A stretch of 64,000 nt of DNA, taken from positions 3,454 to 67,453 of the forward strand of contig JBBACS010000001.1 in assembly GCA_041656855.1 (NCBI GenBank), read 5' to 3'. The notes below the pieces were generated by a model. That model searched no databases and had not been told where the DNA came from. It saw nothing but the letters and a program-made list of their open reading frames with translations. Source of the DNA: Minisyncoccota bacterium (GTDB lineage: Bacteria > Patescibacteriota > Minisyncoccia > Phycocordibacterales > GWA1-40-21). This document shows, in pieces, positions 1 to 63,617 of this stretch; the stretch's first letter is position 1, and each line of letters starts with the position of its first letter. A program made the position numbers and the translations under genes.

Positions 1-518
1 CTTTTAAAAATGCGTCAGATATCTTAAAAATAATTGATAACACAGATACAGAAATAGAGATAAACTCAACAAAAAATCAAATATCTTTTGTTTTTAACGG
101 TATGTATTTGGTTTCAAGAGTAATTGATGGTGTTTTTCCTGATTATAAACAGATTTTACCAAAAGAAGAGAAGACAAAAGTGGTGCTTTTAAAGCAAGAT
201 CTTGTAAATTCATTAAAAATATCAAACATTTTTTCAGACAGCTTCAACCAAATGAATATAAGTGTTAAAAAAGGTGAAAAAATAATAAAAGTAAGAACAA
301 AAAACTCAAATGTTGGTGAAAACACTAATAAGATAGATGCAAACATAGAAGGGGAAGATATAGAGGTAAATTTTAATTATAAATATATTGTTGATTGTTT
401 GCCTTCTATAGTCTCTGATAGTGTATCTTTAATTTTTAACGGAATGAATAAAGCGCTGATTATTAGAGGAACTTCAGATAAGACATTCACATATCTTGTA
501 ATGCCTATGAATAGGTAA
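1..518 (+). CDS. dnaN: DNA polymerase III beta subunit (sliding clamp), C-terminal part; 5' end outside window
   Basis: Frame 3 is open from the window edge (FKNASDILKIIDNTDTEIEINSTKNQISFVFNG...) and runs into listed ORF 102..518; clamp C-terminal-domain-like sequence ending LIIRGTSDKTFTYLVMPMNR; stop TAA 516-518. Confidence 0.8.
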   Translation, partial: FKNASDILKIIDNTDTEIEINSTKNQISFVFNGMYLVSRVIDGVFPDYKQILPKEEKTKVVLLKQDLVNSLKISNIFSDSFNQMNISVKKGEKIIKVRTKNSNVGENTNKIDANIEGEDIEVNFNYKYIVDCLPSIVSDSVSLIFNGMNKALIIRGTSDKTFTYLVMPMNR

Positions 519-519
519 T

Positions 520-659
520 TCACCCGTTAAAGTTTTTGCCAATGTTTGTTAAAAATTCATTAAATAAACAAAATCATGGTTTTAGATAAAAGTAATTTGA
601 TAGTATTGGTTGTTATGTCAAAACAAACAATTTTTATTGGCAAAAATTTTCTCGGGTAA
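520..659 (+). repeat. CCCG/CGGG-clamped palindromic element, family A copy A1 (140 nt); 3' arm abuts ATG 660
   Basis: Left arm TTCACCCGTTAAAGTTTTTGCCAAT (520-544) and right arm ATTGGCAAAAATTTTCTCGGGTAA (636-659) are imperfect reverse complements; same termini at 4018-4157 (minus) and 28949-29181. Confidence 0.85.
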
Positions 660-914
660 ATGTTTGATATAGCAAAATATCTTGAAAAGTTTAAAGTGAT
701 GTCGCAGTCGCGAGGTTTTTTGAGAAATTCTGTAGTAGAAGCAATAAAAGAAGTTTGTAATATAGAAATAGAGCCAAATAAAATTGAAGTAAAAAATTAT
801 ATTGCCAGAATAAGCGAAAGACCAATAATAAAAACAGAGATTTTTCTAAAAAAAGTTAAGATATTGGAGATTTTAGATAAAAAAACTAGTGGAAAGGTAA
901 AGGAAATACTTTAA
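660..914 (+). CDS. small hypothetical protein downstream of dnaN (a position typical of DUF721/DciA-like genes; family not verifiable by eye)
   Basis: 84-aa ORF whose ATG directly follows element A1; no motif recognised. Confidence 0.5.
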   Translation: MFDIAKYLEKFKVMSQSRGFLRNSVVEAIKEVCNIEIEPNKIEVKNYIARISERPIIKTEIFLKKVKILEILDKKTSGKVKEIL

Positions 915-1425: not shown

Positions 1426-4017
1426 TTATTTAATTTTTATAGGGATTGTCGCCTCACCTTTATTATAGACACTATCATAAACTACCACCTTAAGTTCATT
1501 GATGCCTACAATAAAAGAATTAGTTCCTGATGGTACAAAATTTAATATATACGGATATGTCTCGGATGTTCCTATGAGCTCGTTATTTAAGTAAAAATTA
1601 GCTCTAGTAATGGGAAAACGTGCCATTGTAGAGAACACCACACCTAATCTATAATCCTTATCATATTCAAGATTTTGTAACGGAGCAAGAATTGTTACTT
1701 TTGGTTTATTTGCTTCGATGTGTATGTCATCATATGTGGTTGGTTTGCTAGTAGAAGCTTGCGGATGTGTTAGGAGCCAGTTTTGTACAGAAAATTCCCA
1801 AGCAAGAAATTGCGAATCATTCTCGGGGTTTATCGGGGCTGGACCTAAAGGATCATTTTTATCTACCCAATAAAGTATTGAGTGTATGTTTGGTATAGCC
1901 ACTTCTACTTTTGTTTCTTCCGGTGTCATATCCGTAGCAAGTTTACCTGATATTTTATCTATAAAATAAGTTTCATTTCCTTGCCATATTCCTCGGAGCA
2001 CTGGTTTGATTGTTTGATCAATTTCAGTGGGTTTTATAAAAGTTTCTCCTGTGGTACTTGCAAGAGCCGCTGCCATAACCTCATGCCACAATGGAGCCAA
2101 GATTGTTCCCGCAACTTTTTTTACCATAGGTTTGCCGCTATTGTTTCCAGCCCAAGCTCCTACAACTATTTCTGGTGTGTATCCAATAGTCCAAACATCT
2201 TTATAGTTATCCGTGGTTCCTGTTTTTGAGGCAACTTGTTTGCCATGAAAAAATAATGGAGAATTTATTCCATAAGCTGGAATTTTAGCAATGACATCAG
2301 ATAAAACATCGGAAATTGTTTCTGCAATGTTTGGATTAAGAACTGTTTGCGGATTTTGTGTGAAAGTTTCTAAAACATTTCCTTGTAAATCTTCCACAGA
2401 AAGAATTCCCGTATAAGGATTTCTGATTCCGTCGTTTGCAAAAACGCCATATGCACTCGTCATATCAAGCAAAGAAACTTCAGCGCCTCCAACAACTAAA
2501 GTTAAACCATATTGGTTTGAATCTTTAAGTCCTTTTACACCCATGGACGTTGCGGTTTCTATTGAATCTTTTATTCCAGCAAGATATAAAGTTTTTATAG
2601 CCGGAATGTTTCTAGATTGAGCCAAAGCATTTCTTAAAGATATGGGTCCTACATATTGGTTATCATAATCTTCGGGCATATAACATGCCGTAGAGGAAGA
2701 AATAACAGCAGTTGGATCTATAGGCAAACCTTCTGGAGTACAAGTGGTTTGAAATTCTGTTGGAAGATCGAAAACAACCGTGTCTGGCGTATATCCTTTT
2801 AGAAATGCAGTAGCATATACAAAAGGTTTAAATGTAGATCCTGGCTGTCTATTGCGTGCTATGGCCACATTAAAATTACCATCTATTTCTTTATCAAAAT
2901 AATCTCTAGAGCCGACCATGGCCAATATTTGTCCTGTTTTTGGATCTATTGCAACAACGGAAGCATTTTCTGCATCAAATTCTATTTTATTTTCAAGGGC
3001 TTTCCTTTTTGTTATTTCTTCAGCTTTTACTTGTAAATCATAATCAAGCGTGGTGATTATTTTAAATCCTTTTTGTTGTACTGCATCTTCACCGTATTTA
3101 TCTACTAAGTATTGTTTTATAAATTCTACAAAGTGTGGTGCCTTTATCCCGTATTTTTCTTGTGGAAGAAACGCTATTACTTCTTTTATTGCTTTGTCAT
3201 ATTCTTCTTGAGTGATGAATTTGTTTTCAAGCATCTTTGAAAGAATAAGTTTTTGTCTTGTATCTAACTGAACTTTATTTTGTCCATAAGGTGAATAATA
3301 AGTAGGTGCTTTTGGGATTGCAGCCAGATAGGCAGCCTCACCAAGAGTTACATCTAACGCTTTTTTACCAAAAAAAGTTTCACTTGCTTGTTCAACGCCA
3401 TAAATAGTTCCACCGTAGGGGTTTCCATTTAAATAAACAGATAATATTTCGTCTTTTGTCATTACTTTTTCAATTTCTATAGAAAGGACCCATTCTTTTA
3501 ATTTTCTAGAAATACTTTTTTCGGTTGTGAGCAATGAATTTTTGACTACTTGTTGTGTGATGGTGGAACCTCCTTGGCTAAAACTGCCAGAAAATATATT
3601 AGCAAACACAGCTCTTATGAAAGAAGAGATTTTTATTCCGCCATGTTGATAAAATTCAACATCTTCTATTGCTATCGTTGCATTTTTTATATCTTTAGAA
3701 ATATCTCCGAAAGGAACCACTGTTCTTTTTTTGCCCTCATGTATATCGTAAAGTAATATTTTCCCTGTGCGATCATATATTTTTGTAGACTGTGTTACGA
3801 TTCTTGTATCAAAAGATTGTAAGTCTGGCATTTGAAATGTGGAAATCCACAAAGCAATAAAACCACAAAAAACAAAAAATAAGGCAGATATTATAATAAA
3901 TATTTGCTTAGGATTCTTTTTTATAAAATGCAGAGTTTTTCTTGTTTTTGGTTTAATGTGGTGCTCAAAACTGTGCTTTATATGGTGTCTAGCTATCTCT
4001 AGCTTGTCTTTTAACAT
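1426..4017 (-). CDS. class A penicillin-binding protein (transglycosylase + transpeptidase) with C-terminal extension
   Basis: N-terminal TM; glycosyltransferase motifs EDVEFYQHGG, GGSTITQQ, RKLKEW; transpeptidase motifs STFKP, SRN, KTGTT. Confidence 0.9.
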   Translation of the reverse strand: MLKDKLEIARHHIKHSFEHHIKPKTRKTLHFIKKNPKQIFIIISALFFVFCGFIALWISTFQMPDLQSFDTRIVTQSTKIYDRTGKILLYDIHEGKKRTVVPFGDISKDIKNATIAIEDVEFYQHGGIKISSFIRAVFANIFSGSFSQGGSTITQQVVKNSLLTTEKSISRKLKEWVLSIEIEKVMTKDEILSVYLNGNPYGGTIYGVEQASETFFGKKALDVTLGEAAYLAAIPKAPTYYSPYGQNKVQLDTRQKLILSKMLENKFITQEEYDKAIKEVIAFLPQEKYGIKAPHFVEFIKQYLVDKYGEDAVQQKGFKIITTLDYDLQVKAEEITKRKALENKIEFDAENASVVAIDPKTGQILAMVGSRDYFDKEIDGNFNVAIARNRQPGSTFKPFVYATAFLKGYTPDTVVFDLPTEFQTTCTPEGLPIDPTAVISSSTACYMPEDYDNQYVGPISLRNALAQSRNIPAIKTLYLAGIKDSIETATSMGVKGLKDSNQYGLTLVVGGAEVSLLDMTSAYGVFANDGIRNPYTGILSVEDLQGNVLETFTQNPQTVLNPNIAETISDVLSDVIAKIPAYGINSPLFFHGKQVASKTGTTDNYKDVWTIGYTPEIVVGAWAGNNSGKPMVKKVAGTILAPLWHEVMAAALASTTGETFIKPTEIDQTIKPVLRGIWQGNETYFIDKISGKLATDMTPEETKVEVAIPNIHSILYWVDKNDPLGPAPINPENDSQFLAWEFSVQNWLLTHPQASTSKPTTYDDIHIEANKPKVTILAPLQNLEYDKDYRLGVVFSTMARFPITRANFYLNNELIGTSETYPYILNFVPSGTNSFIVGINELKVVVYDSVYNKGEATIPIKIK

Positions 4018-4157
4018 TTACCCGAGAAAATTTTTGTTGATGAAAATGTGTTGAGGTTATATGAGTAAGTAGTTTTTAAATAGATATACTCTTGTAAAAG
4101 AATACCTTCTATTTAACCCTCATTTTCAACACGTCAACAAAAACTTTAACGGGTGAA
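4018..4157 (-). repeat. family A palindromic element copy A2 (140 nt), minus orientation; 3' arm abuts PBP start codon
   Basis: Minus strand reads TTCACCCGTTAAAGTTTTTGTTGAC...CATCAACAAAAATTTTCTCGGGTAA-ATG; inner stem GTTGA/TCAAC differs from A1 but remains complementary. Confidence 0.85.
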
Positions 4158-4210
4158 TTATAGCATTTTGTCAGATAGAAAAAAACTATTTTTTATGATA
4201 GATTTGATGT

Positions 4211-6652: not shown

Positions 6653-9600
6653 TTAGACCACCAAATTCATATTTATAACTCCAGTCTTTATTTCTATAGC
6701 TTCTGTCTTGAACACTTCTGTATAAGTCCCATCATCCTTTTTCTTTTCTACTTTGATGGAATATTTTCCATTAGGTACAAGAGCATAATAAGCCCCAAAT
6801 TTGTCAGCAATTTTCTTTGTAAGCGGAGTATCTTCACCTTCTCTGAATATGGAGACGATAGCAAAGGATAGAGGAGCTTTTGTATGTTTTTCAGTAAGAG
6901 TACCTGATTTCTTAGTCTTGAGTACTACATAATTTAATATGTAAGCTACTATATAGAATCCTGCGATAATGAAGTTGTATGGTGCAGGTGCAAAGATAAC
7001 GGCAATGAAGGCAACTATGGCACCGATAAAGAAGATGACGCTTGATATCTTGGCCCAAGTAATATCTTTTTGCTTCATGAATTTATTTACATTCATCTTG
7101 GTCTTGGCAAATTCATTCCAATCAAATGATAGAGAGTCCATAGGAATATTTTTTGTAATAATTGCGCCTTCTGTTTCAACTGTCATCTCTTCACCAAAAT
7201 ATAAATCATTGTAGACTTCATCAAATGATCTACCTGCCATTTTCTTTGATGGCTGAATATAATTTGTTTTTGTTGCAACTATTTTGTATTTACCTGGTAA
7301 TACAAGGAATCCATATCTTCCATCTATATCTGTAATAGCTCCTGCTACTTCCTTTCCTGTCTCTATACTGATTAGAGATACATACACAGGGTCTAGAGGT
7401 CTCTTTGTGACTGAATCATAGACTGTACCCCATTGTCTTTGTTTTCTCTTTATACCAAGAGCACTGAGAAGCAAGGCAAGTATTCTTGCAGGAATCAACC
7501 ATATTTCAGAGAAAGATATTGGAGTAGCAAAGGCAATTGCTGATATAGATATTGTAGCTCCAGCAATTATACCTGTGGTTGAAATAACTTTTGTTACAGC
7601 AGATCCAGTAGGAGTATTTACTATTGCTCTTGTATTAGCGATTGCATTCTTGGCAATAGATATTACTTGGTCATAACCTTGTTTTGCAGATACACCTATA
7701 TCAGGAACAACGTTCTGATTTGTTTCTGTTCCTGCACTAGTTTCAGTTTGTTGTTCTTGAGTTGGAGTTTCTACTATATCGGTAATTACTTCTGGAATTG
7801 TATTTTCTGGAGCTTTTGGTGTTTCAACTTTTGGAATTACAGGAGCAGAAACTTCTGGAATTGTCTCACATCCTAAAATATCATTTGCTTTCTTTCTTGT
7901 AGCATTTCCAAAGTTTCCAGTTCCTTCTGCTAGACCAAATGGAGCTAATATATCATCTGCATAATATTCTTGGAATGAATGAACTGCAAGTATTGTTTTT
8001 GAACCATAGTAAGTTGTTTCTGAACCTTTTGTTGATGCATTAAATCCTTGGCTGTTTAGGAATATTTGTAGATTTTTTATATCTGAATCTGTTGTGTATT
8101 GATGAAGATTTTTAGTAAAGCAGAAGCCTGAAGGAAGATTAGGAGTTGATGTAACCCCCGGTGCTTCTTCTATTTCTTCAGTAGAAGAAGATGTTGCAAG
8201 TGCTAATGTTGTGGTTGTTGAAGGAACTGTAGAAACTTCTGTAGAGCCTGATGATGGAGAACGGTGTCCACTACTCAAAGCTAAAGTGGTGAATGTAGCA
8301 TCACTTGAATAAGTAGTACCTAAACGATCTGTGATGAAAGCTTGGTAGTGGTATGTGGTGCTAGCTGATAATCCCGTAATATCTGCAGAATATTCACCTG
8401 TAGAAAAAGATCCGGGTTCAGTATATACCGCGGCAACATTCATGCTTCCAATTTTATTTTTATTTACAGCAAATCCAGATGATTCTTTTGTGGTCATTGC
8501 ATATTCCGTGGTAGTACCATATCTGAAACCTCTTGCGGTTATTGTTTCTCCTGCTGTGCTTGTGATGTTTGCTTTCAATGTTGCTGATATATCAGCAACT
8601 ATAGGTGTTTCCAATTCCACATCACGAACAGAAATAATTGACCCGAAAACTGATGAAGAGAAATAACTAAAATTTCCCGCTGCATAAAGAGTGGACCCTG
8701 ATAAGGATAAAGTATATGCAGTAGTCATATGGTCACCTGATTGAGGATTCGGATTAAAACTTGTCGTGGTTGCGACGTCAAGATCATATGCCGCAAGACT
8801 ATTACGCGTTAGACCATTAAAAGTAGTAAAACTTCCTCCCACAAAAAGAATAGAGTCAAATATGGTCATCGTTCGTACAGAAGAACCTGTAGTTGGAATT
8901 ATATTTAAACTTGTCGTAGTTGCGTTTACAAGATCATATGATGCGATGCTTTTTCTAGGTAAACCACCGAAATTGGTAAAATATCCGCCAGCATAGAGAG
9001 TAGAGGTTGCTATTAATAAAGAATTTATTGTTGATGAGTCACCAGGATTTGGGATTGGACCAGGATTAAAATCTGTAGTGGTAGCGTTTGCAATATCATA
9101 TGCGGCAAGACGGTTACGATCGAGGTCTCCAAAAGTGGTAAAATTTCCTCCCACATAAAGAGTTGAACTTGATATGGTGAGAGCATTTACAACAGCAGGG
9201 GTACCTCCCACACCTGGATTAAAATCTGTCGTAGTAGCTGTGAGAATATTGTATGCAGCTATATTATTACGATTGAAACCACCAAAGGTATCAAATTGTC
9301 CTCCCGCGTATAAAATGTCATCTGATATCGCTATGGAATATACATAAGGGGAAAAGCCGGCTCTTGTTATTCCTGGATCAAAATCTGTAGTAGTGTCTGT
9401 GAGAAGATTATATGCCGCAAGGTCACTACGTGTCAGACCATCAAAAATATCAAACCAACCACCCACATAAAGTATATTGTCTGATATAGTCAAAGTGTAT
9501 ACGGCGTGTCCACTATACCATCCTACATTTGGATTAAAATCTGTTGTATTTCTATTTACAAGATCATATGCAGCTAGCCTGTTTCTTGTTTGGCTACCCA

Positions 9601-10882
9601 AAAGATCAAATGTACCCCCTATATAAAGAGTAGAATCTGATAAAGCTAATGTTTTAACTGCACTTCCCGCGTTCACAATCAAATCTGAAGTAGTAGCATT
9701 TGCAAGATCATAAATAGCAAAATTGGTGCGTGGCAGTCCTCCAAAAGTAGTAAATTCGCCACCAATATAAAGATAGGAATCTGATACAGCCAAAGTATAT
9801 ATGGCAGAATTAGCTCCTGCACCTGGATCAAAATCCGTAGTAGTAGCATTTACAAGATCATATGCGGCTATTTTAATACGATCTAATCCTTCAAAGGTAC
9901 TAAACTGACCCCCTACGTAAATAATACCATCTGATATAGTCAAAGCTTTTACGGCGTTGGCACCAATATTTAAACTAAAATCTGTAACGGTGTCTGTAAG
10001 GAGGTCATATGCTGCAAGATAATTACGTCCGAGTCCACCAAAGTTAGTAAAACCTCCACCAGCATAAAGAGTAGAGCTTGATACAGCCAAAGCATACACA
10101 GCAGCATTTGGGCTTGGATTAAAATCTGTAGTAGTCGCATTTATAAGATCGTATGCGGCAATATTGTTGCGTCCTAAATTACCGAAGTCAGAGAATTCAC
10201 CACCGACGTAAAGTGTAGAACTTGATACTACTAAAGAATATATTGACTGCCCTGTATAGGTACTATTTGGATTAAAGCTTGTTACTGTAGCATTTGTAAT
10301 ATCATATGCCGCTAAACTATTACGAGGCAGACCATAAAATGAAGGGAAAGCTCCACCAACATAAAGTATATTATCCGATATGGTCAAAGATCTCACGGCA
10401 TATTCTCCCATATCTGGATTAAAACTAGAATCTACGGTTCCATCAGCTAATATATGTGCCATACCATTTCTTGCTTGGTTATCAACATATGTAAAAGCTC
10501 CTCCTATATACCAGCCTCCTGCTCCATCGCTGACTGAAGCATAAACCTCACCTATAACCTGAGGATAAGAAGCCACCGCTTGTCCAGTAGAAACATTTAT
10601 AGGTACTCCCGCTCCCGTACATGCTCCAACTTCAGTGAAGCTTCCTCCGTAATATAAGATTGAGCCTTCTATTAATGATGTATATATGGATCCATTGGTA
10701 CAGACACCAAGTGATTCGGGTGAATCAAAAACTGCGGCGAGATTGTATGATTTAAGACTAAAAATCTTTTTCCAGTTTTCTTTTGGAACAGATATTAATG
10801 CTAAAGCAACAAGTATAAGTAGCAAAAAGAAAATCAGAAAAGAAGAGGATTTTGTTTTTGTTTGTGGTGTTTTATTTTCCAT
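6653..10882 (-). CDS. giant membrane-anchored surface protein: beta-propeller-type repeats, PG-binding-like domain, C-terminal CarboxypepD_reg-like domain and TM helices
   Basis: N-terminal TM; about 13 repeats of LYVGG.F..FGGL.RN.LAAYDL.NATTTDFNP (delta-60/DUF5122-like); NLQIFLNSQGF...YYGSKT (PG_binding_1-like); DIDGRYGFLVLPGKYKIVATK. Confidence 0.8.
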   Translation of the reverse strand: MENKTPQTKTKSSSFLIFFLLLILVALALISVPKENWKKIFSLKSYNLAAVFDSPESLGVCTNGSIYTSLIEGSILYYGGSFTEVGACTGAGVPINVSTGQAVASYPQVIGEVYASVSDGAGGWYIGGAFTYVDNQARNGMAHILADGTVDSSFNPDMGEYAVRSLTISDNILYVGGAFPSFYGLPRNSLAAYDITNATVTSFNPNSTYTGQSIYSLVVSSSTLYVGGEFSDFGNLGRNNIAAYDLINATTTDFNPSPNAAVYALAVSSSTLYAGGGFTNFGGLGRNYLAAYDLLTDTVTDFSLNIGANAVKALTISDGIIYVGGQFSTFEGLDRIKIAAYDLVNATTTDFDPGAGANSAIYTLAVSDSYLYIGGEFTTFGGLPRTNFAIYDLANATTSDLIVNAGSAVKTLALSDSTLYIGGTFDLLGSQTRNRLAAYDLVNRNTTDFNPNVGWYSGHAVYTLTISDNILYVGGWFDIFDGLTRSDLAAYNLLTDTTTDFDPGITRAGFSPYVYSIAISDDILYAGGQFDTFGGFNRNNIAAYNILTATTTDFNPGVGGTPAVVNALTISSSTLYVGGNFTTFGDLDRNRLAAYDIANATTTDFNPGPIPNPGDSSTINSLLIATSTLYAGGYFTNFGGLPRKSIASYDLVNATTTSLNIIPTTGSSVRTMTIFDSILFVGGSFTTFNGLTRNSLAAYDLDVATTTSFNPNPQSGDHMTTAYTLSLSGSTLYAAGNFSYFSSSVFGSIISVRDVELETPIVADISATLKANITSTAGETITARGFRYGTTTEYAMTTKESSGFAVNKNKIGSMNVAAVYTEPGSFSTGEYSADITGLSASTTYHYQAFITDRLGTTYSSDATFTTLALSSGHRSPSSGSTEVSTVPSTTTTLALATSSSTEEIEEAPGVTSTPNLPSGFCFTKNLHQYTTDSDIKNLQIFLNSQGFNASTKGSETTYYGSKTILAVHSFQEYYADDILAPFGLAEGTGNFGNATRKKANDILGCETIPEVSAPVIPKVETPKAPENTIPEVITDIVETPTQEQQTETSAGTETNQNVVPDIGVSAKQGYDQVISIAKNAIANTRAIVNTPTGSAVTKVISTTGIIAGATISISAIAFATPISFSEIWLIPARILALLLSALGIKRKQRQWGTVYDSVTKRPLDPVYVSLISIETGKEVAGAITDIDGRYGFLVLPGKYKIVATKTNYIQPSKKMAGRSFDEVYNDLYFGEEMTVETEGAIITKNIPMDSLSFDWNEFAKTKMNVNKFMKQKDITWAKISSVIFFIGAIVAFIAVIFAPAPYNFIIAGFYIVAYILNYVVLKTKKSGTLTEKHTKAPLSFAIVSIFREGEDTPLTKKIADKFGAYYALVPNGKYSIKVEKKKDDGTYTEVFKTEAIEIKTGVINMNLVV
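8695..10525 (-). repeat. in-frame tandem coding repeats (about 47 aa / 141 nt each) inside the 1409-aa gene
   Basis: Recurring ...STLYVGG.F..FGGL.RN.IAAYDL.NATTTDFNP... units in the translation; boundaries approximate. Confidence 0.75.
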
Positions 10883-17250: not shown

Positions 17251-17721
17251 ATGAAAATAGTTAGCAAAAGCCTTTCTGATACACAAAAAATAGCCGAGGA
17301 TTTCATAGGTAAAATATCTATGGAGGTTTATAATAATGCACTTGTTGTTGGGCTTTATGGAGATTTAGGTTCTGGAAAAACTACTTTTACTCAAGCTGTG
17401 GCAAAAATTTTTAGTATTAAAGAAGATATAACAAGTCCGACTTTTGTTATTGAAAAAATATATGATATTTCTCACCCCAGTCAAATAAAAAGCCAATTTG
17501 ACGGGGCAAGCAAAGATTTCAAAAAACTTATTCATATAGATGCATATCGTTTGGATTCTGCAAAAGAACTTTCTGCGCTTGATTGGGATAAAACATTAGC
17601 TGATTCAAGAAATATTATTTTTATAGAATGGCCAGAAAGAGTATTAGAAGTATTGCCAGAAAATCATGCAAAAATAAATTTTAAATTTTTGAGCGAGAAT
17701 GAAAGAGAAATTGAAATATAA
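17251..17721 (+). CDS. tsaE: tRNA t6A37 biosynthesis ATPase TsaE
   Basis: Walker A GDLGSGKTTF, SPTFVIEKIY, HIDAYRL. Confidence 0.85.
   Translation: MKIVSKSLSDTQKIAEDFIGKISMEVYNNALVVGLYGDLGSGKTTFTQAVAKIFSIKEDITSPTFVIEKIYDISHPSQIKSQFDGASKDFKKLIHIDAYRLDSAKELSALDWDKTLADSRNIIFIEWPERVLEVLPENHAKINFKFLSENEREIEI
17474..17506 (+). repeat. 33-nt family B palindromic element inserted in frame in tsaE
   Basis: ACCCCAGTCAAATAAAAAGCCAATTTGACGGGG; 32/33 identical to 50546-50578 in argS; encodes PSQIKSQFDGA. Confidence 0.9.
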
Positions 17722-28913: not shown

Positions 28914-28948
28914 TTTTTGTTGTTTGGTTTTTTTGTATAAAAAAGATA

Positions 28949-29181
28949 TTCACCCGTTAAAGTTTTTACTAACGCATTATGCACGATACACCTGTTTTTA
29001 TAGTGTTTATTTTAATTTATATACCATTTTTATATATAAAACGAAACCGACTTATCGCATAATGCAAAAAAGTTATTTTTAGGTTAAAATATAGAGTAGT
29101 TATATGAATATGGTCTCTTCAAAAAATAGTATACAAAAAGTCGCCCATAACTTTTTTATTAGTAAAAATTTTCTCGGGTAA
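28949..29181 (+). repeat. family A palindromic element copy A3 (233 nt); 3' arm abuts pilB ATG
   Basis: TTCACCCGTTAAAGTTTTTACTAA ... TTAGTAAAAATTTTCTCGGGTAA-ATG; inner hairpin CGCATTATGC/GCATAATGCG-like. Confidence 0.85.
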
Positions 29182-30948
29182 ATGATATTAGAAAGCAAAC
29201 AGCTCAAAGATTTTTTAATAGATACAGGTCTTGTAACTAAGACCGAGTATGATGATATAGAAAATTTTATAAAAAAAGGCAAAAAAAAAGATTCTCCTGA
29301 AAAAGTTTTGGTAAGTCAAGGAAAAATTTCTGAAGATGATTTGCGCAGAGCACAAGCTTATGTGTTTGGTATACCTTTTGTAGATTTAAGAAATCAGAAA
29401 ATTGATTTTGCTGTTTTATCTCTAATTCCTGAACCTCTCGCTCGTAAAAACAATATAATTGCATTTAAGAAAAATGCCGATTCTCTTGAAGTTGCGATGC
29501 TAGATATTAATGATTTGCCGGCTATTGAATTTATAAAAAAGAAAGTTGGATTAAAAATTTTACCAAGGCTTACTGATTCAGTATCTATAAAAGGAGCTAT
29601 GCTTCAATATCAAAAAAGTTTGAAAGCAGAGTTTGGTGATTTGATACAAAAAGACGTCCAAGCTCTTAAAAATTCTGGCCATCTAGAAATAGGAATAAAA
29701 GATGAGACAATAGAGGAGTCATTGAAGAAAATGGCAGAAGACCTTCCAGTTGTTCGTATTGTGGAAACACTTCTTAAACATGCTGCATTACAAAATGCTT
29801 CTGATATTCACATAGAGGTTATGGAAAATGACGTACTCATTAGATATAGAATTGATGGAATCCTACATGATGCCATGGTTCTACCAAAAAATGCGGCAAC
29901 AAGCATTACCGCTAGAATAAAAGTTCTTTCAAATCTAAAGCTTGATGAAAAAAGATTGCCTCAAGATGGAAGATTCAAGATTGATATAAATGGAGAAAAG
30001 GTTTCATTTAGAGTTTCTGTCATTCCTACATATTTTGGGGAGAAAACCGTCATGAGATTGCTTCGAGAAAATGTTGGATCATATTCTTTGGAATCTATGG
30101 GTTTCCACGGGACAAATTTAGAAAGAATTCACGAGGCGATTAAAAAGGCAAATGGAATGATTCTCACAACTGGTCCTACGGGTTCTGGTAAAACAACAAC
30201 TCTTTATACAATTTTGGAATTATTAAATTCTGCTGATGTAAATATCGCCACCATTGAAGACCCTATTGAATATCAGGTAGCTAGAATAAATCAAACCCAA
30301 GTAAAGCCCGAAATTGGTTTCACTTTTGCAAATGGTCTGCGTTCTTTAGTCAGGCAGGATCCAGATATAATAATGGTAGGAGAAATTAGAGATAATGAAA
30401 CAGCATCTCTAGCGGTTAACGCAGCTCTTACAGGGCACATGGTGCTTTCAACTTTGCACACAAATTCTTCTGCGGGTGCTATTCCAAGACTTATGGATAT
30501 GAAAATAGAGCCGTTTCTTCTTGTTTCTACTATTAATATTATTTTGGCCCAGAGACTTATTAGAAAACTTACAAAAGAAAAAGAAAAATATCTTTTATCT
30601 AAAGCGGAATTATTATCCTTGGGGAGAATTGTAGATTTAAATAAAGTTTTAGAGACATTGAAAGCAGAAAATATAGTAGGAAAAGATGATACTTGGGAAA
30701 ATATTTATTTTTATAAAGCGAAAGAATCTATAGAATCAAAAGATGGTTATTCAAGCAGAATTGGTATTCACGAAATACTTAAGATGACCCCATCAATAAG
30801 AGACCTTGTCATGAAAGGCTCTACATCACAAGAGATAGAAGCACAGGCAAAAAAAGAAGGTATGCTGTCTATGATTGAAGATGGAATATTTAAATGTGTT
30901 ACAGGCATGACAACAATAGAAGAAGTGTTAAGGGTTGTTTCAGAATAA
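29182..30948 (+). CDS. pilB: type IV pilus assembly ATPase PilB/GspE family, paralogue 2
   Basis: T2SSE N-domain, Walker A GPTGSGKTT, DPDIIMVGEIRD, GHMVLSTLHTN; no tetracysteine motif. Confidence 0.9.
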   Translation: MILESKQLKDFLIDTGLVTKTEYDDIENFIKKGKKKDSPEKVLVSQGKISEDDLRRAQAYVFGIPFVDLRNQKIDFAVLSLIPEPLARKNNIIAFKKNADSLEVAMLDINDLPAIEFIKKKVGLKILPRLTDSVSIKGAMLQYQKSLKAEFGDLIQKDVQALKNSGHLEIGIKDETIEESLKKMAEDLPVVRIVETLLKHAALQNASDIHIEVMENDVLIRYRIDGILHDAMVLPKNAATSITARIKVLSNLKLDEKRLPQDGRFKIDINGEKVSFRVSVIPTYFGEKTVMRLLRENVGSYSLESMGFHGTNLERIHEAIKKANGMILTTGPTGSGKTTTLYTILELLNSADVNIATIEDPIEYQVARINQTQVKPEIGFTFANGLRSLVRQDPDIIMVGEIRDNETASLAVNAALTGHMVLSTLHTNSSAGAIPRLMDMKIEPFLLVSTINIILAQRLIRKLTKEKEKYLLSKAELLSLGRIVDLNKVLETLKAENIVGKDDTWENIYFYKAKESIESKDGYSSRIGIHEILKMTPSIRDLVMKGSTSQEIEAQAKKEGMLSMIEDGIFKCVTGMTTIEEVLRVVSE

Positions 30949-33171: not shown

Positions 33172-33217
33172 TCGTCGCGCTTAAATGACGGTTGCGCGAC
33201 GTGATTTCGCAAAATCA
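33172..33217 (+). repeat. family C two-hairpin motif, copy C3
   Basis: TCGTCGCGCTTAAATGACGGTTGCGCGACGTGATTTCGCAAAATCA; perfect 8-bp stem CGTCGCGC/GCGCGACG. Confidence 0.85.
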
Positions 33218-33223
33218 ACCTGT

Positions 33224-38835: not shown

Positions 38836-39648
38836 ATGGATATTAAATACATAGATATTCATTCTCATTTAGGTTTTGGTGATTATCAAAATGATTTTTC
38901 TGATGTTCTAAAAAGAATGGAAGACGCAGAAGTTGAAACTATCACTGTTGGTACAGATTTGGAAAGTTCAAAAGAAGCGATAAAAATTGCTGATGAAAAT
39001 GAAAATGTTTGGGCTTGTATCGGTTCTCACCCAGCTGATAAAAGAGATTTTATATTTGAAGAAAAAGATTTTGAAAGTCTAGTAAAAAATCCGAAAGTCG
39101 TAGCAATAGGTGAATGCGGTTTGGATTATTTTCATATTGAAAAAGAATTTGGAGACGGGGAAGTTTCTGAAAATAATATCAATAAAGAAAAAGAACGCCA
39201 AAAAAAAGAATTTATTAAACAGATTGAATTTTCAATAAAACACAATAAACCACTAATGTTGCATCTACGCCATGGCGTAGATGATGTTTTTGCTGATGCT
39301 TATAATATACTAAATAAATATAAAGGAAAAGTAAGAGCAAATATGCATTTTTTTGCAGGAAGCTTGGATTGGGCGAAAAAGTTCATAGAGCTAGGTTTTA
39401 ATATTTCTTTCACTGGTGTCATTACATTTGCAAGACAATATGATGAAATTATTAAAAATATTTCTTTAGATAAAATACAAGCAGAAACAGATTCTCCTTA
39501 TGTAGCGCCAATTCCTTATAGAGGAGAGAGAAATGAACCATCTTATGTTATAGAAGTTGTTAAAAAGATTGCAGAAATACGCGGGGAAAATTTTGAAACA
39601 GTACGAAAACAACTTTTACAAAATTCTAAAGACTTTTTTGGCGTTTAA
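38836..39648 (+). CDS. tatD: TatD family metal-dependent hydrolase
   Basis: DIHSHL, GECGLDY, MLHLRH, ETDSPY. Confidence 0.85.
   Translation: MDIKYIDIHSHLGFGDYQNDFSDVLKRMEDAEVETITVGTDLESSKEAIKIADENENVWACIGSHPADKRDFIFEEKDFESLVKNPKVVAIGECGLDYFHIEKEFGDGEVSENNINKEKERQKKEFIKQIEFSIKHNKPLMLHLRHGVDDVFADAYNILNKYKGKVRANMHFFAGSLDWAKKFIELGFNISFTGVITFARQYDEIIKNISLDKIQAETDSPYVAPIPYRGERNEPSYVIEVVKKIAEIRGENFETVRKQLLQNSKDFFGV
39262..39283. repeat. 22-bp perfect palindrome P3 inside tatD (same core as P1/P2)
   Basis: CATCTACGCCATGGCGTAGATG, encodes HLRHGVDD. Confidence 0.9.
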
Positions 39649-46078: not shown

Positions 46079-47434
46079 ATGAAAAAGAAAGAGATAAAAC
46101 CAAGTATTTGGGATGTCGCTGTTATCGGAGGTGGCCCTGCAGGGCTTATTTCTGCTGGAATTGCTGCTCAAAATGGTACAAAGGTGATTCTCATTGAGAA
46201 GAATGAAACCATGGGAAATAAGCTACTTTTGACTGGTGGAGGACGCTGTAATCTTACAAATGTTGAACCAGACGAAAGAAGTTTTGTTTCAAAATATGGA
46301 AAGAAGGGAAGTTTTCTTTTTTCTCCACTTTCTGTTTTTGGAGTGCAAGATACGATAAGATTTTTTGAAAAAATTGGTTTAAAAACAAAAGTTGAAGCCG
46401 GGTATAGAGTCTTTCCAGAAAGTGGTAGTGCTATGGATGTACTTGGTGTACTTACAAAATTTGGAATGAATAATAAAGTTGAATACATGACGGGAGCAAA
46501 TGTTATTGGTATAAAAAAAAATCGAGGTAAGATTATTTCAGTTGTTGTTGAAGATGGTTCACCCGAAAAAATTTTGCCTGACGCATTTGCTAAGGCAAAT
46601 GCAAGAAAAATCTCAGATTTTTCATCAGGCAAAACTTTAGCGGGTAAAGAAATAAAAGCTAAAAATTTTATTCTTGCTACTGGTGGAAAGTCATATCCAG
46701 AAACTGGTTCAACAGGAGATGGTTTTAAGTGGTTGAGAGAAATTGGACACAAAGTTGCAGAACCGAACCCTTCCCTTGTTCCTATTAAAGTAAAAGAAAA
46801 TTGGATTAGTGATTTTGCAGGAATATCTTTAGATAATGTTGGTATATCTATCTGGCAAAATGATAAAAAAGTATTTGGAAAAGTTGGAAGAGTTTTGATT
46901 ACTCATGATGGTTTTTCTGGCCCAACAATCTTGAATATGAGCAAAGACATCGGCGAATTACTTGCAAATGGTGAAGTTAAAATTGCTATAGATTTTTTCC
47001 CAGGAGTAGGACTTGATATTATGAATCAAATGATGATAAAAGCTTTTGAAGGGAATGCTACTAAAAAAATAAAAAATCTTGTTTTTAAAGAAGTCCCAGA
47101 AAAAATTTATTTTAAAATATTAGATATTATGGGAATGGATGGAGAATGGCTTGCAAATGAAGTTAAAAAAGCAGAAAGAATGGCAATCATGGATGAATTT
47201 AAAAAGTTTGATTTTGTAGTTGAAGGTCTTCATGGATTTGAAAAATCAATTGTTTCAAGTGGTGGTGTAGATTTGTCTGAAGTTGATTTCAAAACAATGC
47301 AGTCAAAACTTTATGACAACTTGTATTTGGTAGGGGATATTTTAGATTTTGATAGAAATTCTGGTGGTTACTCATTGCAACTCTGTTGGACGAGTGGTTA
47401 TATTGCAGGTAAATCGGCTGCTAAAAATATCTAA
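46079..47434 (+). CDS. BaiN/HI0933-family FAD-dependent oxidoreductase (listed ORF starts at 46052)
   Basis: VIGGGPAG dinucleotide-binding motif, GGGRCN, ILATGGKSYPETGSTGDGF. Confidence 0.8.
   Translation: MKKKEIKPSIWDVAVIGGGPAGLISAGIAAQNGTKVILIEKNETMGNKLLLTGGGRCNLTNVEPDERSFVSKYGKKGSFLFSPLSVFGVQDTIRFFEKIGLKTKVEAGYRVFPESGSAMDVLGVLTKFGMNNKVEYMTGANVIGIKKNRGKIISVVVEDGSPEKILPDAFAKANARKISDFSSGKTLAGKEIKAKNFILATGGKSYPETGSTGDGFKWLREIGHKVAEPNPSLVPIKVKENWISDFAGISLDNVGISIWQNDKKVFGKVGRVLITHDGFSGPTILNMSKDIGELLANGEVKIAIDFFPGVGLDIMNQMMIKAFEGNATKKIKNLVFKEVPEKIYFKILDIMGMDGEWLANEVKKAERMAIMDEFKKFDFVVEGLHGFEKSIVSSGGVDLSEVDFKTMQSKLYDNLYLVGDILDFDRNSGGYSLQLCWTSGYIAGKSAAKNI
46560..46647. repeat. family A-type palindromic element (about 88 nt) inserted in frame in the flavoprotein gene
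   Basis: CACCCGAAAAAATTTTGCCTGA ... TCAGGCAAAACTTTAGCGGGTAA, nested hairpins GCATTTGC/GCAAATGC and GAAAAATC/GATTTTTC; encodes SPEKILPDAFAKANARKISDFSSGKTLAGK. Confidence 0.85.
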
Positions 47435-47465
47435 AAGTCGATATCTAGTTATAAATTAGTGTGCT

Positions 47466-47777
47466 ATGCTTTCTTTAAGTATGAAACCATATTTAATGAA
47501 CTATTTTTTGTGCGTTATATTTGCGATAGCTTTCTTTTCTATTTTGGGTGCTTTAAAGTGGGTAACACCTAGTTTTTTTTATGTGCCAACGAATATAATC
47601 ACTATTCTTTCTATACTTTTATTTCCAGGAATTACTAGATTTTTTCTAGATAAGGCGAGAGAGGTTGGAAAATATTCTAAAAATAAAGCTCTAGCATTAA
47701 GAATGCTTTCTTATGTTTTTTTTGTTCCTTTTATTTTATATTTTACTTATATTTTAATTAGTAAATGGAGTTTTTAA
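47466..47777 (+). CDS. small integral membrane protein, unknown function
   Basis: 103 aa, about three hydrophobic helices. Confidence 0.5.
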   Translation: MLSLSMKPYLMNYFLCVIFAIAFFSILGALKWVTPSFFYVPTNIITILSILLFPGITRFFLDKAREVGKYSKNKALALRMLSYVFFVPFILYFTYILISKWSF

Positions 47778-47785
47778 ATATGTGT

Positions 47786-47813
47786 TTGACAATATCTTTG
47801 CTAGAGGTAGTAT
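47786..47813 (+). promoter_or_regulatory. sigma70-type promoter
   Basis: TTGACA, 16-nt spacer, TAGTAT. Confidence 0.55.
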
Positions 47814-47857
47814 CTGATATAGAGAAAGCACACTAATATAAAGGAGGAAAATATTTT

Positions 47858-48058
47858 ATGGTATTTCCAAATTTAATTGAAGCAGTAAGTTCATTTTTCA
47901 AGAAAAAGTGTATTTGTCCTAAGACATGTGACTGCCAGAATCCGCCACCGAATAACTGGAATGGCAAATCGGGAGTTTATCACATCAGTAATGGATGCCC
48001 CGTGCATAATGTTTCCCCCGATCCTGATCCCGATTGCGAAGCGACAGTTCATGGGTGA
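47858..48058 (+). CDS. small Cys/Pro-rich hypothetical protein (66 aa)
   Basis: Strong SD AGGAGG 47842-47847; KKCICPKTCDCQNPPP...GCPVHN...DCE; own promoter and terminator. Confidence 0.6.
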   Translation: MVFPNLIEAVSSFFKKKCICPKTCDCQNPPPNNWNGKSGVYHISNGCPVHNVSPDPDPDCEATVHG

Positions 48059-48061
48059 ATA

Positions 48062-48088
48062 AAAACCGGAGATTTGATCTCCGGTTTT
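48062..48088. terminator. bidirectional intrinsic terminator
   Basis: AAAACCGGAGAT-TTG-ATCTCCGGTTTT. Confidence 0.85.
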
Positions 48089-48098
48089 TAATTGTGTT

Positions 48099-49049
48099 TT
48101 AGAATTTATTGTTTACACCTCCTATTGGATAAAGTTTTTCATCTATTACTCTTATAAAACAAGTTGTTGTAGCTTTGTGGAACCAATTTTCATTATCTGA
48201 ACCATATGGATATGGAGTAGAAACCCTTTTGCCTGTTATAGAATTTAATGTAGTAGTTGCTACTGTTTTAAAATCTGCACAAAGTTGGAAACTATTTTTT
48301 GAAATTTTCTTGTATCCATAATTGGCTTGTGTTTCAGGATCTGTTGGTAATGTAAAGCCACTGATAGGATCTTTTAGGGCCTCTAAACTTGTAGGTACTG
48401 TACCTTTGTTTTGCCATTGTGAATAAACTATCTGACTTTGAATATTATTCAAGTCGTTTACTCTTTGGTCGTCAAGTTGTTTTGCTTTTTGTTTTGCTGG
48501 AGAACCGATTATTACTATCCCGTAAATTACAGCAGAAAGTATCACCACAGAAATTATTCCTATAGAGATTTTCATCCATTTTGCAATTTCAAAAGAAGTT
48601 CTTTTTAGGTCTGCAAAAGTAAACTTGAATATTGTGACAGCCACAGCTAGGACGAACAAGACTTTCAAGAAAAATCTTAATGTTAAATCTTCAGCACCTA
48701 GGAGTCTATATAAAAGAGTTGAAAGGTCTATTGCTACTGTTAGTCCAGAAATAAAAAGGGTTAGATAAATCATCCATCTTCTGACCCACATATCTTTTTT
48801 CTCTGGGTTTGCTTTCAAATCTTTATTTGCAATAAGCCCAATATAAATAAAAGCAGGGAAGAATATTATAAGTGCAGCCAAACTTCCACGGATTGAATAA
48901 TCAATATTTCCGGCGTATTCTCCGGCTAGTGGAAATAGTTTTTCAATAATTTGAAATATGAGCATTAAGAAACTGACTGAACTCACATAAAGTCCTATGA
49001 TTACTCCTAGATATAGGAAGAAATCTTTTGCTGTTGTTTTTTGATTCAT
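48099..49049 (-). CDS. multi-pass membrane protein (DUF5671-like N-terminus) with pilin-like C-terminal domain
   Basis: Several TM helices; C-terminus ...LPTDPETQANYGYKK...FQLCADF resembles pseudopilin globular domains. Confidence 0.5.
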   Translation of the reverse strand: MNQKTTAKDFFLYLGVIIGLYVSSVSFLMLIFQIIEKLFPLAGEYAGNIDYSIRGSLAALIIFFPAFIYIGLIANKDLKANPEKKDMWVRRWMIYLTLFISGLTVAIDLSTLLYRLLGAEDLTLRFFLKVLFVLAVAVTIFKFTFADLKRTSFEIAKWMKISIGIISVVILSAVIYGIVIIGSPAKQKAKQLDDQRVNDLNNIQSQIVYSQWQNKGTVPTSLEALKDPISGFTLPTDPETQANYGYKKISKNSFQLCADFKTVATTTLNSITGKRVSTPYPYGSDNENWFHKATTTCFIRVIDEKLYPIGGVNNKF

Positions 49050-49131
49050 TCTTAATATTGTTAAATTGATAATGGATTTATTATACCACGACTGGCTTTA
49101 TGTTGATACTTGCTTATGTTAATATTACTTT

Positions 49132-50838
49132 GTGATTAAAAACATACTAGAAAATTCAATAAAGACCGCGCTTTGGTCTCTCAAGATAGATGAAAAGAAA
49201 GTTTCTAAGATAAATTTGGAACATCCAGAGGAACTATCTCATGGAGATTATTCTTGTAATATCGCGATGATTCTTGCAAAACAAGTTGCTCAAAATCCGC
49301 GAGAACTTGCAGAAAAGATTGTTGCAGAAATAAATGAAAGAAAACCAGAAGAGATTTCAAGAGTAGAAGTTGCCGGTCCCGGATTTATAAACTTTTATTT
49401 GTCTTCTGAATTTTTTGTTAATGAAAGTAAAGAAATACTTTGTGACTGTAATGATTTTGGTAGAAGCAAGATTGGAGAAGGAAAGAAGGTAGTTGTTGAA
49501 TATTCTTCTCCGAACATCGCAAAGCCATTTACTATTGGGCACTTGCGCTCAACTGTTATAGGCGATGCCATTGCAAACATTTTAGATTACTCAGGATATA
49601 AAGTAATCCGTGACAATCACTTGGGAGATTGGGGAACACAGTTTGGTAAGCTTATTGTAGCTATAAAAACTTGGTCATCACTTGATAAAATAAAAAAATC
49701 AAAACAACCTATAAAAGATTTGGTAGATTTGTATGTAAAATTTCATGATGAAGCAGAAAAAGATTTAGCTTTAGATAATGAGGCTCGAGATTGGTTTACA
49801 AAGCTTGAAAAAAATAATAAAGAAGCAAAAAATATATGGAATGTATGTGTAAAGCTTTCAATGAAAGAATTTGAAAAAATATATAAACGCCTTGGGGTAA
49901 AATTTGATACTGCATATGGTGAAAGTTACTTTGAAAAGAAAATGCAAGAGGTTTTGAAAGATATAAATAAACTAAATCTTGCAAAGGAGAGTGAAGGAGC
50001 ATACCTGGTATTTTTCAAAGATGATAAATATCCTCCGATGATGCTTTTGAAAAAAGATGGCTCAACAATATATGCTCTTCGTGATTTAGCTACGGATAAA
50101 TTTAGAAAGGAGAAGTATGGAAAAGATGTCGTAATCATAAATGAAGTTGGAATGGAACAGAGTTTGCACTTCGAACAGATTTTTGAGACGGAAAGATTGC
50201 TTGGATATTCAAATGGTGCAGACAGAATACATGTTAAACATGGTTTTTATCGTTTTCCAGAAGGTAAGATGAGTACGAGAAAGGGAAATGGTATCTGGCT
50301 AGATGAAGTTCTTGATGAAGCAGTCGTAAAAGCTGCAGCGTTTGATAAAAATACAGCAGAGGTAGTTGGAATCGGTGCAATAAAGTTTAACGATCTAAAA
50401 AGAGAAAGTTCAAAAGATATAATTTTTAATTGGGATGAGATATTAAACTTGAAAGGGGATTCAGGACCATATTTACAATATTCATATGCCCGTGCGAAAT
50501 CTATTTTGAGAAAAGCTAAAGAGGATGGTGTAAAAGCTAAAGTTAACCCCAGTCAAATGAAAAGCCAATTTGACGGGGCGAGTATTACAATACTCGAAAA
50601 ATTACTTTATAGATTTCCTGAGGTTGTGGAAAGGGCAGGAGCTGAATATTCACCACACTACATTGCAACTTATCTTATTGAGCTTGCCTCATCATTTAAT
50701 AATTTTTACGGACAAGGAAAGATTGTAGATAAAACAGATGCAAATTCCCCATACAAAGTTGCACTTACAGAAGCTTTCTCAATTGTTTTGAAAAATGGAC
50801 TTAATCTTTTGGGTATTTCCGCTCCAGAAAAAATGTGA
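49132..50838 (+). CDS. argS: arginyl-tRNA synthetase (GTG start)
   Basis: SSPNIAKPFTIGHLRS, MSTRKG, DALR anticodon-binding C-terminus. Confidence 0.9.
   Translation: MIKNILENSIKTALWSLKIDEKKVSKINLEHPEELSHGDYSCNIAMILAKQVAQNPRELAEKIVAEINERKPEEISRVEVAGPGFINFYLSSEFFVNESKEILCDCNDFGRSKIGEGKKVVVEYSSPNIAKPFTIGHLRSTVIGDAIANILDYSGYKVIRDNHLGDWGTQFGKLIVAIKTWSSLDKIKKSKQPIKDLVDLYVKFHDEAEKDLALDNEARDWFTKLEKNNKEAKNIWNVCVKLSMKEFEKIYKRLGVKFDTAYGESYFEKKMQEVLKDINKLNLAKESEGAYLVFFKDDKYPPMMLLKKDGSTIYALRDLATDKFRKEKYGKDVVIINEVGMEQSLHFEQIFETERLLGYSNGADRIHVKHGFYRFPEGKMSTRKGNGIWLDEVLDEAVVKAAAFDKNTAEVVGIGAIKFNDLKRESSKDIIFNWDEILNLKGDSGPYLQYSYARAKSILRKAKEDGVKAKVNPSQMKSQFDGASITILEKLLYRFPEVVERAGAEYSPHYIATYLIELASSFNNFYGQGKIVDKTDANSPYKVALTEAFSIVLKNGLNLLGISAPEKM
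50546..50578 (+). repeat. 33-nt family B palindromic element inserted in frame in argS
   Basis: ACCCCAGTCAAATGAAAAGCCAATTTGACGGGG; encodes PSQMKSQFDGA. Confidence 0.9.
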
Positions 50839-63585: not shown

Positions 63586-63617
63586 ATGTAAAAATATAGT
63601 CACTTTGTTCCTTATTT

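Follow-up and report, generated by a model that had tools for sequence, protein, structure and literature searches.

How does a palindromic repeat come to lie, in frame, inside an enzyme gene of a bacterium from the Patescibacteria, or candidate phyla radiation (CPR), whose genomes are tiny and streamlined and where selfish DNA in essential genes is unexpected? The question is raised by 64,000 nt of DNA (below, the window) from a Minisyncoccota bacterium (GenBank contig JBBACS010000001.1, positions 3,454 to 67,453), in which an element of 91 nt sits within the gene for an HI0933-like flavin adenine dinucleotide (FAD) flavoprotein. This 64-kb window contains in-frame palindromes of at least three families, in its flavoprotein, ArgRS, TsaE, and TatD genes. 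We consider it likely (probability about 0.8) that the flavoprotein element is one copy of a palindromic mobile family that circulates in Patescibacteria/CPR and is read in frame, akin to the Rickettsia palindromic elements (RPEs) and to transposable elements of the miniature inverted-repeat type (MITEs). We would file the family as new and its kind as known, that is, as RPE-like or as an in-frame MITE. Three aspects go beyond an earlier note made from these letters: the inverted core of the element, the repeated occupation of the same site in other lineages, and the extension of the family across many genes and genomes.

Anatomy of the palindrome and its place in the flavoprotein

The element reads TTCACCCGAAAAAATTTTGCCTGA-C-GCATTTGCTAAGGCAAATGC-AA-GAAAAATCTCAGATTTTTC-A-TCAGGCAAAACTTTAGCGGGTAAA and is an imperfect palindrome, whose two 24-nt inverted arms are 83% complementary by a repeat finder and enclose two hairpins with perfect stems, one of 8 bp (46583-46590 with 46595-46602) and one of 9 bp (46605-46613 with 46615-46623) (Table 1). 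Folded as RNA, the single strand forms a three-way junction (T shape) of −39.7 kcal/mol, a stability reached by 0 of 200 shuffled sequences (mean, −17.3 ± 2.9 kcal/mol; z = −7.8), and the 22-nt left arm has no second match within the window at ≤3 mismatches, with 0 chance matches expected. The palindrome is far beyond chance. The earlier note had described two nested hairpins plus outer arms, both of which the repeat finder and the fold recover, and had given the element a size of 88 nt (46560-46647); the element is real, but its extent has to be corrected to 91 nt (46558-46648).

The reading frame is open across the element in open reading frame (ORF) 46052/46079..47434, whose product matches Pfam families PF03486 (4e-71) and PF22780 (1e-27) and has ~7,800 homologues in a protein search. 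The element was thus correctly placed in frame in an HI0933-family gene, just ahead of the conserved ILATGG strand that leads into the ATGG motif. The four closest full-length orthologues (P0002-P0005; 70-79% identity) lack the insert and are ~25 residues shorter: in the alignment they run from …ILEN to GEEIK…, where the window protein has …VEDG-SPEKILPDAFAKANARKISDFSSGKTLAG-KEIK…. Orthologues that do have the peptide also have the palindrome in their DNA, in agreement with an insertion as first proposed. Compared with the empty allele L001, which is 82% identical to the window gene in DNA, the boundaries of the insert are ambiguous by 3 nt, with GGT at both junctions. About 28 added residues had been claimed; the insertion is in frame, as stated, but the net insert is 29 residues (87 nt).

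Between the window gene and L001, the ratio of nonsynonymous to synonymous substitution rates (dN/dS) is 0.12, which argues that the flavoprotein gene family is under purifying selection. An independent Joint Genome Institute (JGI) contig, L014, matches window positions 46305-49086 (2,782 nt) at 99.93% identity and free of gaps; the in-frame state is therefore no assembly error, and the frameshift that would have made the gene a pseudogene was looked for in that assembly and not found. These data bear on the most conservative explanation, namely, that the insert is a native, lineage-specific loop with a coincidental palindrome, or else an assembly artefact or part of a pseudogene. A hydrophilic insert in a loop whose length varies among orthologues is what a native loop would look like, but this DNA recurs between genes and within unrelated genes (see below), chance does not produce such a palindrome, the independent contig is identical across the element, and the ORF is intact with its low dN/dS. 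We give this explanation practically no weight.

Structural comparison places the insert in a tight turn between two strands: the match to PDB entry 2i0z splits there (query 10-159 with chain 27-175, query 188-449 with chain 175-442), at turn G175. In an AlphaFold2 model of the 450-aa product translated from 46082, residues 160-186 have a predicted local distance difference test (pLDDT) score of <50 and no secondary structure, and are flanked by strands 150-156 and 189-198. Both the template and the model locate the insert at a beta-hairpin turn, and the model indicates that it is tolerated by the host protein as a disordered loop.

On our reading, a copy of the mobile family would have landed in this surface turn of the flavoprotein; lying on the coding strand and offering a single stop-free sense phase, it would be read through by the ribosome. 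The product would be a hydrophilic, unstructured loop of 29 residues that leaves the enzyme functional, and the insert peptide itself is probably not selected.

Copies in and between the genes of Patescibacteria

As the earlier note had recognised when it assigned the element to a family, the flavoprotein copy has arms (CCCGAGAAAATTTTT... and ...AAAAACTTTAACGGG) in common with three intergenic copies, which brings the family to four copies in the window. The intergenic copies carry arms TTYACCCGAGAAAATTTTT… and …AAAAACTTTAACGGGTGAA around longer, unrelated interiors, and their inner-stem bases are different but still paired. All copies that we collected retain the arms TTYACCCGARAAAATTTT… and …AAAACTTTARCGGGTRAA. 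Scanning GTDB, one genome per species, for the exact left arm gave 5 loci, among them 3 full copies in two metagenome-assembled genomes (MAGs) of Patescibacteria, and a two-arm pattern found the family in 17 metagenome contigs (~14 distinct elements). Exact 20-nt left-arm matches in Chitinophagaceae/Bacteroidetes MAGs (L009, 5385-5404; L010, 4812-4831) lack the right arm and the hairpins and are probably due to chance, a few such hits being expected in 596 Gb; L010 also has the preceding TTCA in common. A lone right-arm-like match at window position 40046 is a chance match inside an ORF.

The copies follow a common plan: an outer stem, a conserved hairpin H1 (GGAAAATC-nnn-GATTTTCC), and then a hairpin H2 that is hypervariable and always paired. 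They occur in a short form of 81-95 nt and a long form of 141-238 nt, in neither case with an autonomous ORF. A covariance model, R1, built from an alignment of 17 copies scores short copies at 67-111 bits and finds two of the three long intergenic forms of the window (49 and 37 bits) as well as one in L002. Identical cores in L004 and L007, which are two copies in one MAG, and in two copies within contig L020 argue for recent copying within a genome. A phmmer search with the 35-aa peptide against 1.8 billion proteins gave a single match within a cutoff of E = 0.001, an alanine racemase, the query being too short for a census; a 62-aa concatenation of two peptide variants had no match in an index of 5.8 billion proteins, a word index that is ill-suited to short motifs.

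The in-frame hosts identified by Pfam include an RNase H (L007), an RluA-type pseudouridine synthase (PseudoU_synth_2; L008), TatD (L011), Mg_chelatase/YifB (L022), and alanine racemase (P0121). The flavoprotein gene itself is occupied at three sites among its orthologues: site A, before ILATGG, in six orthologues; site B in P0085 and P0101 (DNA in L028); and an N-terminal site in P0075 and P0110 (DNA in L029). The peptide (S/L)PEKIL…KTL(A/T)G recurs in at least six families of host proteins and is read in one and the same frame throughout. Genic copies are free of stops in only one sense and one antisense frame, and 10 of 10 lie on the coding strand in the stop-free sense frame; outside the flavoprotein, their positions are at the edges of Pfam domains or in between. 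Most intergenic copies have stops in that sense frame and usually lie a few dozen bases from a gene end. Such elements may account for many of the lineage-specific loop insertions of CPR proteins that hamper annotation, alignment, and structure prediction.

Presence/absence polymorphism was seen twice. The flavoprotein site is filled in the window and empty in L001, and, conversely, the TatD site is empty in the window and filled in L011: where the window reads …AAT/CCGAAAGTC…, L011 reads …AAT/TTACCCGAAAAAA…CGGGTGAA/AAGGTG… (slashes mark the junctions), a net gain of 90 nt.

The copies differ in ways that preserve pairing. It had been claimed that the inner stem of the flavoprotein element (GCCTGA/TCAGGC) is unlike that of the other window copies and yet complementary; this holds, and 17 copies from elsewhere add many two-sided compensatory changes both there and in the second hairpin. 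In the alignment of these 17 copies, 92.8% of cells pair, compared with 85.6% in shuffles, and 16 of 38 pairs show two-sided changes, values reached by 0 of 500 shuffles; 8 of the 9 pairs of H2 covary. Sliding the partner columns by one to three positions lowers pairing to 21-51%. The outer stem retains three invariant mismatches (A·A, A·R, and A·C), and its two arm types always have the same left-right arrangement, which suggests that the arms would be recognised as specific sequences, beyond forming a mere stem.

A very stable and conserved fold with abundant covariation, and the position of many intergenic copies directly beside start or stop codons, could also point to a structured RNA in the coding region as the selected entity, the peptide being incidental. 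Such an RNA could regulate in cis, act as an antisense small RNA, or be a segment removed by intron-like processing. An RNA read from one strand would tolerate G·U and not A·C, but the paired columns contain 11 G·T and 10 A·C mismatches. These equal counts argue that the palindrome is constrained as DNA, and they rule out a strand-specific RNA signal. In addition, the copies point either way with respect to the genes beside them; Rfam 15 gave at most 20 bits (E ≥0.45) around the element, and no family was found even at E = 10; and every genic copy lacks stops and has a length divisible by three, which would be needless if the segment were removed from the mRNA. We know of no bacterial splicing system for an 87-nt hairpin. 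A selected RNA is thus a very improbable explanation. By contrast, the palindrome looks like a property of a mobile DNA element, preserved since only intact copies, able to fold or to be recognised, would propagate.

The long-form copies abut predicted start codons. In all four family-A copies of that form (window positions 655-662, 4015-4024, and 29178-29184; L002, 2375-2379), an end reading …CTCGGGT(A/G)AAT, always of the same arm, adjoins or supplies the predicted start of the neighbouring gene, which is TAAATG in the window and GTG in L002; Pfam domains begin at residues 62 and 90. In the copy at 518..661, the CGGGTAAAT end is followed directly by G, yielding the ATG of ORF 660..914, and the left end of the copy at 4016..4158 adjoins the ATG at 4017 of the minus-strand PBP gene. 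Such abutment could arise where ORFs are called from just behind the TAA of the element; alternatively, expression signals may lie within the element itself.

Table 1. Positions in the window of the flavoprotein element, its host gene, its relatives, and an empty target site
Feature	Position	Strand	Description
Host gene, HI0933-like FAD flavoprotein, 451 aa	46079..47434	+	From ORF list, Pfam, and dN/dS; intact
Whole palindromic element	46558..46648	+	91 nt, terminal repeat to terminal repeat, TTCACCCG...CGGGTAAA
Net insert relative to empty allele	46559..46645	+	87 nt, 29 codons, SPEKILPDAFAKANARKISDFSSGKTLAG; alternative placement 46556-46642; protein and DNA alignment with L001/P0002
Left arm	46558..46581	+	TTCACCCGAAAAAATTTTGCCTGA, encodes SPEKILPD; invariant among family copies except for inner-stem bases
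Inner hairpin 1	46583..46602	+	GCATTTGC-TAAG-GCAAATGC; the family's variable hairpin H2, second in most copies
Inner hairpin 2	46605..46623	+	GAAAAATCT-C-AGATTTTTC; reverse complement of the conserved hairpin H1, first in most copies
Right arm	46625..46648	+	TCAGGCAAAACTTTAGCGGGTAAA, encodes SGKTLAGK; pairs with left arm except for three family-conserved mismatches
Intergenic long-form relative	518..661	-	Same arms, unrelated 92-nt interior; R1, 36.8 bits
Intergenic long-form relative	4016..4158	+	Between PBP1 and TyrRS genes (neighbours by Pfam); R1, 49.3 bits
Intergenic long-form relative	28948..29185	-	238 nt; upstream of and overlapping the ATG of the T2SSE/PilB-like gene 29182..30948
Empty target site in TatD gene (38836..39648)	39088..39093	+	…AAT/CCGAAA…; L011 orthologue filled with 90-nt in-frame copy

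Probable recurrence at one codon and inversion of the core

The six orthologues with a copy at site A fall as six separate singletons with insert-free neighbours in a neighbour-joining tree of the 120 best orthologues. Among three of them (L002, L004, and L005), the inserts are 87-97% identical to one another (77-93% at third codon positions), whereas the surrounding genes are only 66-73% identical (46-56% at third positions, essentially saturated). Judged by these identities, the inserts are young relative to their host genes. Identity is unremarkable in the 30-nt stretches beside the insert (19/30 and 23/30, for instance, between L002 and L004), which rules out a recombination tract or allele transfer as the source of the shared inserts. 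Scattered singletons, together with insert identity above that of the host genes, argue for recent and recurrent gain: the simplest reading of the sequences, and one that they establish in part, is that the same flavoprotein codon gained the element repeatedly and recently in several lineages.

The observations at site A also have to be compared with a single ancient insertion that was kept in a few lineages, precisely lost from most, and held near-constant by a function of its DNA or RNA structure in the host, such as translational pausing, mRNA stability, or protein binding. All six carriers share the exact codon boundary, conservation of the structure is strong and extends to compensatory changes between copies at the orthologous site (L002 versus L005), and the insert is flanked by short direct repeats (GGT or GG), which around palindromes favour precise deletion by replication slippage. 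However, with carriers scattered as singletons among insert-free sisters, many independent precise losses would be needed. Furthermore, the hypervariable H2 is identical in L002 and L004, though their host genes differ by 27%, and is near-identical in the RluA copy of another organism; other genomes have near-identical elements between genes and within unrelated genes; and the bias of G·U over A·C that an RNA function predicts is absent. We regard an ancient insertion as unlikely.

Why one codon should be used repeatedly has two equally possible answers: the element could prefer a target resembling its own ends, or the protein may offer few positions that put up with 30 added residues, perhaps 2-4 in that turn. 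Both of the empty sites examined include a few bases similar to the CCCG(A/T) ends of the element (AACGGAGAAG for the flavoprotein gene, CCGAAAG for the TatD gene), two being too few to decide, and the RluA and flavoprotein copies have a left flank, GA(A/T)GATGG, in common. The repeats at the junctions are GG or GGT (2-3 nt) at the flavoprotein site and a CCGAAA microhomology at the TatD site. The left and right flanks of ~25 copies show no simple target motif and no consistent duplication of the target site; the CCG(A/T) microhomology is a hint only, from the two empty sites.

The second peculiarity of the window copy is the order of its hairpins. In most copies, the left arm is followed by H1 and then H2 ("flip"), whereas the window copy has an H2-like hairpin first and then the reverse complement of an H1-like hairpin ("flop"). 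Its junction bases are also complemented, as in a reverse-complemented flip core, while its arms keep their usual identity and mismatches. Flip copies score ~100 bits with R1 on the strand defined by the arms, compared with ~50 on the other, but the window copy scores 74.7 bits on the plus and 83.7 bits on the minus strand; for L023 and L026, the values for the arm-defined and opposite strands are 67.2 versus 93.3 bits and 67.9 versus 69.8 bits. Since the better score of these three falls on the strand that their arms do not define, the core is inverted between the arms, and at the sequence level such an inversion is shown for the window copy. It presumably occurred in the innermost 10 bp of the arms, where they are perfectly complementary (TTTTGCCTGA/TCAGGCAAAA), most likely by recombination or by replication template switching across them; inverted-repeat recombination and template switching are established behaviours of quasi-palindromes. 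Re-inverting the window core in silico yields …PDEKSEIFLAF…, like the insert …PDEKSEIFRAL… of orthologue P0011.

Since the window copy, L023, and L026 have the opposite core orientation between unchanged arms, and since both orientations can be read without a stop in 10 of 10 genic copies, the 43-46-nt core might be a programmed invertible switch that toggles two loop peptides, as in phase variation. Flop copies are a minority, however (~3 of 22 distinct elements, or a flip-to-flop ratio of about 19 to 3 among those tabulated), which indicates occasional rather than routine inversion, and both independent assemblies of this organism are flop only; nothing here indicates an active switch. No invertase was identified, and a loop of a cytoplasmic flavoprotein would be an unlikely target for phase variation. 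Nor does the open frame after inversion signal a selected switch: each hairpin is its own reverse complement, and an open inverted frame is the expected by-product of that symmetry. A programmed switch is accordingly a highly improbable account of the inverted core.

A more far-reaching and tentative proposal, which we think doubtful, is that the family consists of hairpin elements that spread horizontally and select their sites, repeatedly entering the same codon of conserved housekeeping genes across CPR lineages via CCCG(A/T)-like targets. They would move as a folded, T-shaped single strand on which an HUH-type or other enzyme acts, and core inversion would give alternative in-frame peptides. 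If true, intragenic mobile DNA would include a new mechanistic class, one that regularly supplies the smallest bacterial genomes with novel loops. Recurrence at one codon and the existence of two core orientations offer, in any case, a handle on how the element moves, a question that is open even for RPEs.

Several points weigh against our preferred reading of a mobile family read in frame. One old insertion with many precise losses is possible, given a brake on insert divergence, although it is much less economical. No transposase or other mobilising gene was identified, nor an autonomous element with the same ends, and viral contigs, phage records, and plasmid records yielded no copy. In the collected window and contig DNA, the arms always lie near each other as left-right pairs, none of which encloses a gene. 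No consistent target-site duplication was seen, and the ends of the element can be placed only to within 2-4 nt. That the insert is translated and the enzyme active is inferred, and the AlphaFold2 model is of moderate quality overall (mean pLDDT, 71.5; 30-sequence alignment). Finally, gene callers report intact ORFs only, so protein matches miss out-of-frame, gene-killing insertions; the DNA scans revealed no out-of-frame genic insertion in a sample of only ~25 copies.

Comparison with known elements, and other repeats in the window

RPE-1 to RPE-10 are dispersed palindromes that often lie in frame in unrelated housekeeping genes; each RPE family codes for a peptide that is conserved and located at fold-tolerated positions, and no transposase is known for them according to a review (PMC10969869, summarising Ogata et al. 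2000, 2002). The present family is likewise dispersed, in frame in unrelated genes, and situated at fold-tolerated sites with a conserved peptide, and no transposase was found; the likeness is one of description. Its hosts are Patescibacteria/CPR rather than an alphaproteobacterial endosymbiont, and membership in an RPE family by sequence is not expected. Unlike RPEs (about 100-150 nt), the present copies are shorter (87-94 nt), form a T shape with two inner hairpins and two core orientations, and show evidence of recent spread between genomes and of repeated use of one site.

Bacterial MITEs include Correia elements (CREE) of Neisseria, ERIC, and Nezha (reviewed in PMC10969869). Like them, the present elements are small (<~500 bp) and non-coding, with terminal inverted repeats and multiple dispersed copies, and they show presence/absence polymorphism at orthologous sites; MITEs also show occasional in-frame fusions to host genes. 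They depart from MITEs in that no consistent target-site duplication was seen and no parent insertion sequence sharing their ends was found, and in an interior made of two hairpins, of which one varies strongly in sequence yet is paired in every copy. Correia elements come with varied pairings of end types, which loosely parallels the arm/core isomers described here.

Repetitive extragenic palindromic (REP) sequences are 20-40 nt long, with a conserved GTAG-type head, and a REPIN consists of two inverted REPs. They are mobilised by REP-associated tyrosine transposases (RAYTs; HUH/Y1), thought to act on single-stranded hairpins, and have conserved stem imperfections and no target duplications. 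The present family resembles them in forming hairpins, in its conserved stem imperfections, and in that no target duplication was found, but its arms start with ACCCG, its inner hairpins are unrelated to each other, and its copies are frequently intragenic, so that it falls outside REP/REPIN. No RAYT gene was seen, although no systematic RAYT search was made. The inverted terminal repeat (ITR) of the parvovirus adeno-associated virus (AAV) is a long stem with two small internal palindromes that also forms a T shape, and its flip and flop isomers differ in hairpin order. In AAV, these repeats terminate a single-stranded, linear genome, each replication of which yields flip and flop equally, whereas the present element is chromosomal and internal, with flop in the minority; the T shape and the two isomers make this an analogy only, with no relationship. 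We found no description of such elements in CPR/Patescibacteria in a literature search whose incomplete coverage makes a prior description possible; in-frame palindromic mobile elements are apparently unreported from this phylum.

Two further palindrome families lie in frame in window genes. The first, ACCCCAGTCAAAT[AG]AAAAGCCAATTTGACGGGGC, occurs at 50546-50582 in the ArgRS ORF (49132..50838) and at 17474-17510 in the TsaE ORF (17251..17721); the two copies are 95% identical and encode PSQ(I/M)KSQFDGAS, a peptide also found in flavoprotein orthologues P0025 and P0030 at other positions. The second, CATCTACGCCATGGCGTAGATG, lies in frame at 39262-39288 in the TatD ORF, where it encodes HLRHGVDD and where the L011 orthologue is 4 residues shorter; it is also intergenic at 17757-17783 and 18207-18233. 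Other recurrent in-frame insert peptides in flavoprotein orthologues, GLSL(K/R)RSKATGKGE(S/T)SG, …LDSRLHGND…, and LDCFASLAKT, occur in a loop ~15 residues upstream of site A and elsewhere (P0012, P0021, P0027, P0049, and P0101; P0075, P0106, and P0110); at the protein level, they look like translations of additional repeat families.

At Rfam 15 gathering thresholds, the whole window (1-64000) gave no match to a tRNA, rRNA, riboswitch, or other family. Near gene ends we noted two repeats of two copies each: CGTCGCGC…GCGCGGCGTGAC… at 16052-16097 and 33173-33218 (85% identical), and ATTTGACGGGGT…AAAAATATAGTC… at 24789-24837 and 63574-63622 (84% identical). Finally, positions 8660-10400 comprise about ten diverged tandem units of ~150 nt (60-74% identical) within the minus-strand ORF 6653..10882, whose 1409-aa product is, from its sequence, presumably a repeat-domain protein.

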